From NCBI RefSeq assembly GCF_053078305.1, contig NZ_CP166879.1: a stretch of DNA of 64,000 bases. One strand, written 5' to 3'. Each line of letters opens with the position of its first letter. Position 1 is the first letter of the stretch. Under the pieces are notes generated by a model. That model was given only the letters and a program-made list of their open reading frames with translations, was not told the origin of the DNA and did no database searches. A program made the position numbers and the translations under genes. This document shows, in pieces, positions 38,477 through 39,294 of the stretch.

Positions 38477-38507
38477 TATCCAGCAATCAATCACGTAAGG
38501 GAACCAG

Positions 38508-38684
38508 ATGGCTCTGATCAGCGTTCGCAACAGATTTGAAAGCTTCATGGAACAGAGGTACCCAGACCTGTCGTTGCAGGTCAAAGGTAATATTGGCGCA
38601 TCAATGAAGGCCCAACTTGGCATCGGATTGAACGAGAATTGTACAGTGAAGATGTTACTTACTGTGATTCAGCAGTTCAGTTGA
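38508..38684 (+). CDS. Small ORF (58 aa), unknown
   Basis: ATG at 38508 with aaggga RBS; stop overlaps next ATG as TGATG. Confidence 0.3.
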   Translation: MALISVRNRFESFMEQRYPDLSLQVKGNIGASMKAQLGIGLNENCTVKMLLTVIQQFS

Positions 38685-38848
38685 TGTGGACACTCTTTCA
38701 GGCAGGTGTTCTGGCCGAACGAAGAGCTACCAGCGTTACGCTTCCTGCGCTGAAGGCAAAGCCGGATAGCTTCTACGATGCGGGTTATAACGAAGGTATT
38801 CAGGACTGTCGTAAACATCTGACGGCATCAGGCATCAAGGTAAGATAA
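38684..38848 (+). CDS. Small ORF (54 aa), unknown
   Basis: Translationally coupled to preceding small ORF; followed by terminator. Confidence 0.3.
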   Translation: MWTLFQAGVLAERRATSVTLPALKAKPDSFYDAGYNEGIQDCRKHLTASGIKVR

Positions 38849-38915
38849 AAAATAGTTGTGGAATTCCAAAAAGCCGATTAGCCTGATATCTGTTGAAAAC
38901 AGTTCATCACGAAGA

Positions 38916-38940
38916 GGCTTCCGCAAGGGGGCCTTTTTTA
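38916..38940 (+). terminator. Rho-independent terminator
   Basis: ggcttcc-gcaa-gggggcc stem with GNRA tetraloop and G-U pairs, followed by a run of six T. Confidence 0.65.
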
Positions 38941-39168
38941 TTGCCCCATTCTGGGGAAAAGTTAATAAAACAGGGCTTTCGCTGCGAAAAAACGCTATGC
39001 AGTTTTTGCCCTTTTTTATGCACCTTTTATTCACTCGAATTTCGTCATTCTGGACCACTTAAGTTGATTAAATAGGCCTTTCATCGCAAATCTATTGCGA
39101 GCGGGGATCGTGTGGTTCCTATAACGTACATTATGTTAAATAACTTCCTTTTTTAACAAATTTAACAA

Positions 39169-39193
39169 GGTTCGCTATGGCGAACTTTTTTTT
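39169..39193 (+). terminator. Rho-independent terminator in late leader (tR'-like)
   Basis: ggttcgc-tatg-gcgaac hairpin followed by a run of eight T, about 100 bp upstream of holin. Confidence 0.55.
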
Positions 39194-39294
39194 GTATTCA
39201 GGGCCCACCGAAGGACGGCTCATAACCCAATCCTACGGGCGTATACGCAGGGCCCGCCTTTCAACAACACCCCGTAATGGCGGAGGTGGGAAGT

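Follow-up and report, generated by a model that had tools for sequence, protein, structure and literature searches.

The region at 38,477-39,294 of the window, by which we mean the whole 64,000-nt stretch of contig NZ_CP166879.1 (assembly GCF_053078305.1) analysed here, is probably a Q-dependent switch for the late genes, of the type seen in phage 21 and 933W, in a lambdoid-type E. coli prophage; judging from sequence comparison, we put the probability of this reading at roughly 0.72. The original prediction of a Q-dependent late leader, in which a tR'-like terminator is followed by another one ahead of the holin, is supported by the Q family, the promoter cassette and the hairpins. Its architecture is largely right; its gene reading, which placed two small coupled genes behind Q, is wrong.

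The prophage occupies the window from about 35.5 kb onward, and 61 complete E. coli chromosomes carry DNA near-identical to the region, as do induced phages such as vB_EcoM-611R5. The flanking genes that frame the region are the following:

35580-37772, VapE/primase-type replication gene, a prophage gene 5' of Q
38054..38476, plus strand, Q antiterminator gene, 140 aa, Q21/Q933W family (PF06530, E 5e-42)
39295..39636, plus strand, holin, the first late gene, with MKM dual start ATGAAAATG (PF05106, E 1e-27; phrog_126)

Thus, the upstream gene, predicted as Q-like, is a Q gene, and the predicted holin downstream is a lambda-type holin, followed on its 3' side by endolysin, an Rz-like gene and terminase, in that order. 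No tRNA genes or remnants were found between Q and holin. Rfam, searched with permissive E-values over 37700-39700 and at the gathering score over the whole window, returned only sub-threshold terminator-like matches and no known RNA family.

The Q protein of the window belongs to PF06530, the family of Q21 and Q933W. The same Pfam model that matches it at E 5e-42 matches Q21 at 8.8e-25 and Q933W at 1.4e-50, and a profile built from 15 relatives reaches the solved Q21 structure (6P18/6JNX) with an E-value of 1.5e-8. Directly compared, the window protein and Q21 are distant (phmmer E 0.13). With the Q proteins from Stx phages and from mEp390 it shares 42-47% identity; among characterised proteins, the short Q of Stx phages comes closest, at ~42%. 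The lambda-type Q family, PF03589, gave no match to it at E <= 1.

Behind Q lies a short cassette (38847-38915), which starts at the stop codon of a broken gene discussed below. The late promoter most likely lies here, just 3' of the broken gene, between it and the first terminator. The cassette is composed of these elements:

38847..38855, plus strand, A-tract AAAAAATAG, directly 5' of the -35, with a putative function like that of an UP element
38856-61, plus strand, -35 hexamer TTGTGG, at the position of the annotated pR' -35 of 933W
38856..38871, plus strand, 16-bp near-palindrome TTGTGGAATTCCAAAA containing the -35, candidate Q-binding element
38879..38884, plus strand, -10 hexamer TAGCCT, 17 nt past the -35
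38891..38892, plus strand, predicted late-transcript start, placed by register with 933W
38890..38903, plus strand, short inverted repeat CTGTTgaaAACAG at the transcript 5' end, with a different repeat here in each cassette type

In every relative, the cassette is directly 5' of the first terminator, whether it comes after Q or after an inserted gene, and its parts keep a shared order: an A-tract, a -35-like hexamer within a near-palindrome, a spacer of 16-19 nt, a -10-like hexamer in a constant position, two bases, another -10-like hexamer, then a short inverted repeat and finally a hairpin followed by a T-tract. The gap of two bases between the -10-like hexamers becomes four or five in mEp390 and L082. 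The -35-like hexamers of the relatives are TTGTGG, TTGCGT, TTTACG and others; the -10-like hexamer has A2 and T6 in all relatives examined except L082, with the pattern TAnnnT in 9 of 11 and TTTACT in mEp390. 933W and the other cassette types likewise have this A-tract in the corresponding position.

In the 933W record, this cassette is the annotated pR'. The start of the 933W/Sp5 pR' transcript has been mapped by dRNA-seq, with a 3' end 258 nt downstream by Term-seq (Sy et al., PMC7547250), and RNase E cuts the pR' RNA of Stx phages between GU and AUU at +173 (PMC7547250). Considering that coordinates are shifted in the Sakai RefSeq record, which is a later version, we set the 933W start from these internal distances, the +173 cut and the 258-nt length. 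The GTATT at 872-876 of the 933W sequence (L006) puts +1 at A701, 7 nt after the -10 TATCAT, and by this register the RNA ends on the final T of the second terminator. Thus, the cassette of the window matches a mapped promoter in position, and for the window phage we infer both promoter activity and the exact start from that register. Through the start mapped in 933W, the late promoter is placed for a common E. coli prophage family, which includes those of ETEC H10407, O103:H2 12009 and O55:H7 CB9615. Counting against this placement, the window hexamers agree with the sigma-70 consensus at 6 of 12 positions and a consensus scan reported no promoter.

Cassette and Q are linked. Three cassette types pair with three Q types in 41 of the 41 loci where both are readable; these Q types are mutually 34-44% identical, and the DNA from the first terminator to the holin is common to all three. 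Each Q brings its own cassette, with junctions at or inside the first terminator. In L028, the 67-nt cassette differs from that of the window at one base, while identity falls to 81-82% in the preceding gene and in the following leader.

The 16-bp near-palindrome over the -35 is, from its sequence, the best candidate for the Q-binding site; its binding by Q is predicted from the way in which it changes along with the protein. Across seven Q types, the palindrome covaries with the predicted recognition helix of Q. The first four pairs are given here, and three further pairs obey the same rule:

recognition helix SHT.VLKRLQ, palindrome GTGGAATTCCA
recognition helix SHN..., palindrome G(T/C)GTAATTAC
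recognition helix SLNQVVIRLQ, palindrome TGTTATAACA
recognition helix SDTCIGKRLH (933W), palindrome TTTACGATCGTAAA

In phage 21, the Q-binding element is at the same place as the palindrome of the window, but it is a direct repeat, an element defined for Q21 itself only; no direct repeat of that style, with two 8-bp subsites, was found in the spacer at 38862-38878. It is possible that the Q933W branch of the Q21 family recognises a palindrome over the -35, unlike the direct repeat of Q21, and a palindromic site changing along with the recognition helix is one lead from this work.

For the pause that would hold polymerase near the promoter, the first 25 transcribed bases contain no clear -10-like element except AACAGT (38898-38903, +8 to +13), the sole hexamer with A2 and T6, which is a weak candidate for a sigma-dependent pause at the frequency expected by chance. 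In relatives, the hexamers are TACATT (933W) and TAGAAT (NCTC9022 type). The RNA fold of the 38890-38903 repeat is no better than that of shuffled sequences (z 0.17).

Since the promoter is placed between the accessory gene and the first terminator, both intrinsic terminators would lie within the late leader:

38916..38939 (+26 to +49), plus strand, T1, first intrinsic terminator: stem 38916-22 / 38927-33, GCAA loop, T6 at 38934-39
39169..39193 (~+279 to +303), plus strand, T2, second intrinsic terminator: stem 39169-75 / 39180-85, T8 at 39186-93

A strong intrinsic terminator had been predicted at 38916..38940, and stem, loop, T-tract and folding (-17.1 kcal/mol, z -3.0) all bear it out. Related loci show 13 different hairpin sequences at T1, each of them stable and with a T-tract behind it; 96.7% of the cells in their alignment are paired, with two pairs changed on both sides in a compensatory manner, and the NCTC9022 type has a completely different hairpin. 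The distance of T1 from the promoter is that of the first hairpin of 933W, and it is similar in phage 21. The other predicted terminator, about 100 bp before the holin, was recovered by scan and by folding (-10.4 kcal/mol, z -4.4) and ends 101 nt before the holin start. At the T2 position, related lineages carry at least five different hairpins, four with a T-tract behind, and some lineages have a gene in place of T2. Both T1 and T2 are more than chance. The consensus terminator scan lists T2, not T1, which a separate scan and folding recover; a third, weaker terminator-like hairpin with T6 (38965-39018) is absent from the list of the original prediction. Late leaders of this family usually have more than one terminator, as in 933W, mEp390 and L136. 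In 933W-type phages, the RNA 3' end maps to the second terminator (+258) and not to the first hairpin (PMC7547250); by analogy, termination at T1 may be partial, and polymerase may stop mainly at T2.

Between T1 and T2 lies the most surprising feature here, a leader of ~225 nt, strongly conserved in blocks, non-coding and common to the three Q types, with the following features:

38944..39035, plus strand, conserved non-coding leader block, near-invariant where the flanks are only ~80% identical (folding energy -17.9 kcal/mol, z -2.7)
38944-56, plus strand, small hairpin within this block
38965-39018, plus strand, large hairpin followed by T6 (39012-17), the weak third terminator
39130..39162, plus strand, inverted repeat ATTATGTTAAAT-N7-TTTTTTAACAAATT, with invariant arms and a variable centre

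The strength of this conservation lies outside the Q-switch account and counts against the model. Two anchor motifs are retained together in 16 lineages and lie exactly 176 nt apart in 15 of them. No reading frame for a small protein is open in all lineages, and a 21-codon ORF at 38997-39062 was rejected as a gene, as its three codon positions vary equally (9/9/9) and a ribosome-binding site is missing. A boxA or nut-like site was also rejected: only the core TTTAACAA is shared, with at least four mismatches from the consensus TGCTCTTTAACAA; the leader site is not among the 24 sites within three mismatches, and the core occurs in the window at chance frequency. The leader holds a direct repeat, TTTAT(G/T)CAC, and the minus strand of the 39130-39162 repeat reads as promoter-like in a scan (TTGTTA-18-CATAAT). 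Almost all leader pairs proposed by RNAalifold are invariant, and covariation neither supports nor refutes them. Yersinia phage YP3 also has part of the leader, together with a terminator, at a place where no Q cassette is nearby.

The gene reading of the original prediction concerns the DNA between Q and the cassette, where one disrupted gene accounts for both small ORFs:

38508..38848, plus strand, disrupted PF26207 (Phage_phiTE_015) gene, with a 1-nt deletion between 38624 and 38625

The two ORFs exist as predicted, with 58 aa for ORF1 (38508-38684) and 54 aa, counted from the ATG, for ORF2 (38684-38848), and the TGA of ORF1 overlaps the ATG of ORF2 (TGATG) at 38682-38686. However, they are the halves of one 342-nt gene and not two genes, and translational coupling as a design feature does not hold, as the pair is a frameshifted copy of the single 113-aa gene PF26207. 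The peptide comparison matches both ORFs to parts of one intact phiTE_015 family protein. In strain EPSSH018, the intact version is a single 342-nt gene with the annotation "phiTE_015 family protein", and aligned with it the window lacks one A, reading GGCATC-GGATTG against GGCATCAGGATTG. Residues 1-39 of ORF1 match the intact protein and those after them are out of frame; ORF2 corresponds to residues 60-113 and matches entirely, its start being the internal Met of the invariant VQLMW motif. The TGATG overlap comes from an out-of-frame stop that by chance overlaps an internal Met codon; the appearance of "coupled micro-ORFs" is created by the frameshift in a known gene.

Is the deletion itself real? 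An 81-nt probe spanning the deletion site matched 61 genomes, none identical to the probe. Among the 60 matches listed, 59 complete E. coli genomes have the extra base, and only FDAARGOS_1059 has the length of the window at the break; RefSeq annotates its allele as two hypothetical proteins. Near-identical IMG/VR loci have the intact length in 17 of 20 cases and the deletion in three. In all, at least five records carry the split allele (the window, FDAARGOS_1059, L013, L016 and L022). The deletion is therefore a real minority allele and not a design. Programmed frameshifting was rejected, as a slippery sequence is missing at the break and the intact allele dominates. With the base restored, the sequence is 99% identical to proteins bearing the PF26207 mark and has full-length homology (~106-113 aa), including both the VQLMW and the KPDxFYDAGYNEG motif; the window copy, being frameshifted, is probably a pseudogene. 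This means that a single-base deletion can look like a designed pair of coupled micro-genes, an annotation error. Of the proposal that accessory genes are expressed with Q, one part stands: a coding sequence does lie 5' of the late promoter and would therefore be transcribed with Q, although it is one broken gene and not two.

Intact homologues of 106-113 aa with 43-86% identity occur in E. coli, Rahnella and Yersinia, those of Rahnella and Yersinia at 43-50%, and other prophages of the group have a ~285-nt internal deletion of the gene or lack it. In every lineage examined (window type, L028, L029/Rahnella, L031, L032 and L136), the PF26207 gene is directly 3' of the Q gene, and in L136 its start overlaps the Q stop. 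Phage Pm34 also has it directly behind Q, there a Q of the unrelated lambda family PF03589; a small gene directly behind Q in two unrelated Q families is another lead. As to its function, the protein matched nothing in a Pfam release without the PF26207 model or in NCBIfam, PHROGs assigns it unknown function or a doubtful "head closure" label, and phiTE_015 was mentioned in no paper in our literature search. AlphaFold models it as a helical protein (pLDDT 71), and Foldseek found nothing like this model in the PDB (best E 3.2).

How the late promoter, the two terminators and the conserved leader relate to each other can be read in other ways. It is conceivable, though we consider it rather improbable, that T1 mainly is a promoter-proximal hairpin for Q loading or pausing, that the true tR' is T2 and that the ~303-nt RNA with its 3' end at T2 works as a small RNA in the manner of StxS, the Hfq-binding 258-nt RNA that ends at the second terminator in Stx phages (PMC7547250). 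Indeed, the 933W-type hairpin with U7 at +27 to +49 does not block the build-up of that 258-nt RNA, the leader between T1 and T2 is conserved in length, non-coding and common to several Q types, and its 3' end, an AU-rich stretch, a hairpin and U8, resembles an Hfq-binding module. However, the T1 sequence is that of a strong canonical terminator, with a GC-rich 7-bp stem, a GNRA-type loop and U6, and the equivalent hairpin is annotated as a terminator in the phage 21 record; for the RNA itself, the leader has no sequence similarity to StxS and no covariation beyond invariant pairs, and a gene replaces T2 in some lineages. Blastn of leader segments against the 933W locus (StxS) found no similarity, and StxS is not among the families of Rfam 15; only the position corresponds between StxS (258 nt in Sp5) and the RNA predicted here (~303 nt). 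Apart from the role of T1, we tentatively consider, with low confidence and by analogy, that the segment from T1 to T2 may be a horizontally exchanged module which, together with the promoter, would give a terminated RNA of ~300 nt with its own function, a counterpart of StxS. This would explain the near-invariance of the leader, its constant length and its sharing among three Q/promoter cassettes, and a conserved non-coding late leader that might encode an StxS-like regulatory RNA is the remaining lead.

A promoter between T1 and T2 is unlikely, and so is the scheme built on it, in which the late promoter would be an extended -10-like TGtTAAATA (39134-42) or TATAAC (39120-25), T1 would end the early Q operon and T2 would be the sole Q-controlled tR'. 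The invariance of TTATGTTAAAT and the T-rich block behind it in 12 of 13 E. coli lineages, with invariant bases 26 nt before T2, would suit such a promoter, as would Yersinia phage YP3, which has TTATGTTAAATA and then a terminator with no Q cassette upstream. However, the conserved bases form an inverted repeat, which alone is enough to explain the pattern; a usable -35 is missing, the scan gives no plus-strand promoter here, and TATAAC is not conserved (GATAAC or GGTAAC in other lineages). Moreover, three Q types with 34-44% identity would need one Q-binding site, the variable cassette linked to Q is 5' of T1, and the transcript start of the 933W relatives maps to the cassette upstream of T1. 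Slightly less probable still is that the split ORFs are a working pair, the N- and C-terminal halves being made separately, ORF2 through stop-start coupling at TGATG, and keeping the original function together or alone. The split allele recurs in at least five records, the break falls within a poorly conserved, low-confidence linker (residues 29-46), the best-conserved half is retained in ORF2, and phrog_37465 (58 aa) matches ORF1 end to end. But the split costs residues 40-59, and with them part of the invariant VQLMW, while 19 residues read out of frame are gained; a naturally split homologue was found nowhere else, and sister prophages have lost the gene by the ~285-nt internal deletion, so that the gene is dispensable and decaying in the group.

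Returning to a Q-controlled promoter upstream of T1, we propose the following course for the switch. Early rightward transcription would pass through Q (38054-38476) and the PF26207 gene behind it, and T1 would also stop early transcripts arriving from Q. A sigma-70 promoter directly 3' of the PF26207 gene, with its A-tract, -35, 17-nt spacer and -10, would start transcripts near 38891. Without Q, polymerase from this late promoter would halt at T1 (+49), and polymerase leaking through would halt at the weak middle hairpin or at T2 (~+303); as polymerase stops at the leader terminators, the holin, endolysin, terminase and structural genes would stay silent. Q would bind a site in the promoter cassette, for which the near-palindrome over the -35 is the best candidate, and load onto polymerase held near the promoter. 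The loaded polymerase would be terminator-resistant and therefore read through T1 and T2 into the late operon. In this course, the Q-binding site, the pause site and the efficiency of each terminator are what we infer from the DNA. The three leads, namely the small gene, the palindrome and the leader, leave the basic picture that of a textbook Q switch.

The closest layout is that of phage 21, whose record has the -35, the Q-binding element, the -10, the start, the pause element and the terminator experimentally defined in the same compact arrangement. Both have a Q of Pfam family PF06530, a promoter that begins only a few bases from where the preceding gene ends, a very short leader with a hairpin terminator ending near +46 to +50, and the late lysis genes next on the same strand. 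They differ in that the spacer of phage 21 contains two direct 8-bp subsites for Q, whereas the window has a near-palindrome over the -35; phage 21 has a TAAGCT pause element at +2, and the window has no clear one; the window has a gene inserted between Q and the promoter; and where phage 21 has tRNA genes, the window has the conserved 225-nt leader and the second terminator.

With the Stx2a phage 933W/Sp5, the source of the closest characterised Q (42% identity), the window shares the cassette architecture, including the AAAAAATAG A-tract, the spacing between -35 and -10 and the second -10-like hexamer 2 nt after the -10, as well as a first hairpin ending at +49 and a second terminator ~250-300 nt from the start. 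Where 933W and most relatives have the conserved TAAGAGTGGTTAC...CCAC segment, the window has TATCTGTTGAAAACAG; the leader of the window lacks similarity to StxS, tRNA and toxin genes are absent, and the PF26207 gene lies between Q and the promoter, unlike in 933W.

In common with lambda, the predicted switch has a constitutive late promoter, termination in the leader and a Q, encoded just upstream, that would give terminator resistance, and the holin with its MKM dual start is the first late gene. Lambda differs in having a Q of the unrelated family PF03589, a single tR' at +194 and no gene between Q and pR'. At the holin end of the region, one more paired element was observed:

39201..39255, plus strand, stem GGGCCC...GGGCCC, 5' of the holin ribosome-binding site

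This holin-proximal stem has become GGGCTC...GAGCCC, a compensatory change, in the lineages of L128 and L106.

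Gene insertion in the interval separating Q from the late promoter recurs, as a large prophage group (represented by the related locus L036) shows: it carries a 214-aa gene at this position, behind its Q and ahead of a promoter cassette of the same kind. The Q of this group is 59% identical, and a family search with the 214-aa gene gave no match. A PF26207-like gene lies directly 3' of the antiterminator Q in phages whose Q is of the PF06530 type, and one phage with a Q of the lambda family (PF03589) likewise has such a gene immediately behind Q; at the related locus L136, the start of this gene overlaps the Q stop. 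The regions concerned are as follows:

L138 (phage Pm34) 1582-2821, Q and PF26207-like gene
L135 2069-2830, Q and PF26207-like gene
L136 2082-2824, Q and PF26207-like gene
L036 2921-3565 and 3621-3720, 214-aa gene and promoter cassette

Downstream of the conserved leader, the second terminator and the holin are replaced in some lineages by a sialyltransferase-like gene (phrog_4603), and the junction between leader and gene falls at the exact end of the leader inverted repeat. In strain Sx181-0-1, this gene appears truncated. It was located in two related loci:

L028 3611-4174, sialyltransferase-like gene
L090 2755-3339, sialyltransferase-like gene

Both arms of the same inverted repeat coincide with a promoter-like site on the minus strand (TTGTTA-18-CATAAT, 9/12 match, window 39130-39159); transcription from this site would run leftward and be antisense to the late leader. 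Yersinia phage YP3 (L089 2498-2740) has the leader blocks in recognisable form, together with TTATGTTAAATA and a terminator; this copy has an HTH/small-terminase-like gene on one side and a structural gene on the other, and is distant from the lambda-type Q of that phage; the gene order in the YP3 record looks rearranged.

Two features mark the approach to the holin:

39201-39255, stem GGGCCC...GGGCCC, 5' of the holin start
39295-39303, holin start ATGAAAATG, MKM dual start

The lineage comparison gives GGGCTC...GAGCCC for the stem in other lineages, a compensatory change, and the MKM dual start is as in lambda S.

The interval from the primase/VapE gene to Q contains about 10 copies, in both orientations, of a 9-10-nt unit, (C)TGTACCAAC (window 37743-37925), on the flanks of a (TA)6 tract at 37855-66; the array resembles an iteron-type replication origin. 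E. coli chromosome makes up the left part of the window, where Rfam gave these matches:

14547-15378, AsrC (antisense to rseC)
18162-18376, rnc leader rncO
21789-21865, ohsC antitoxin RNA
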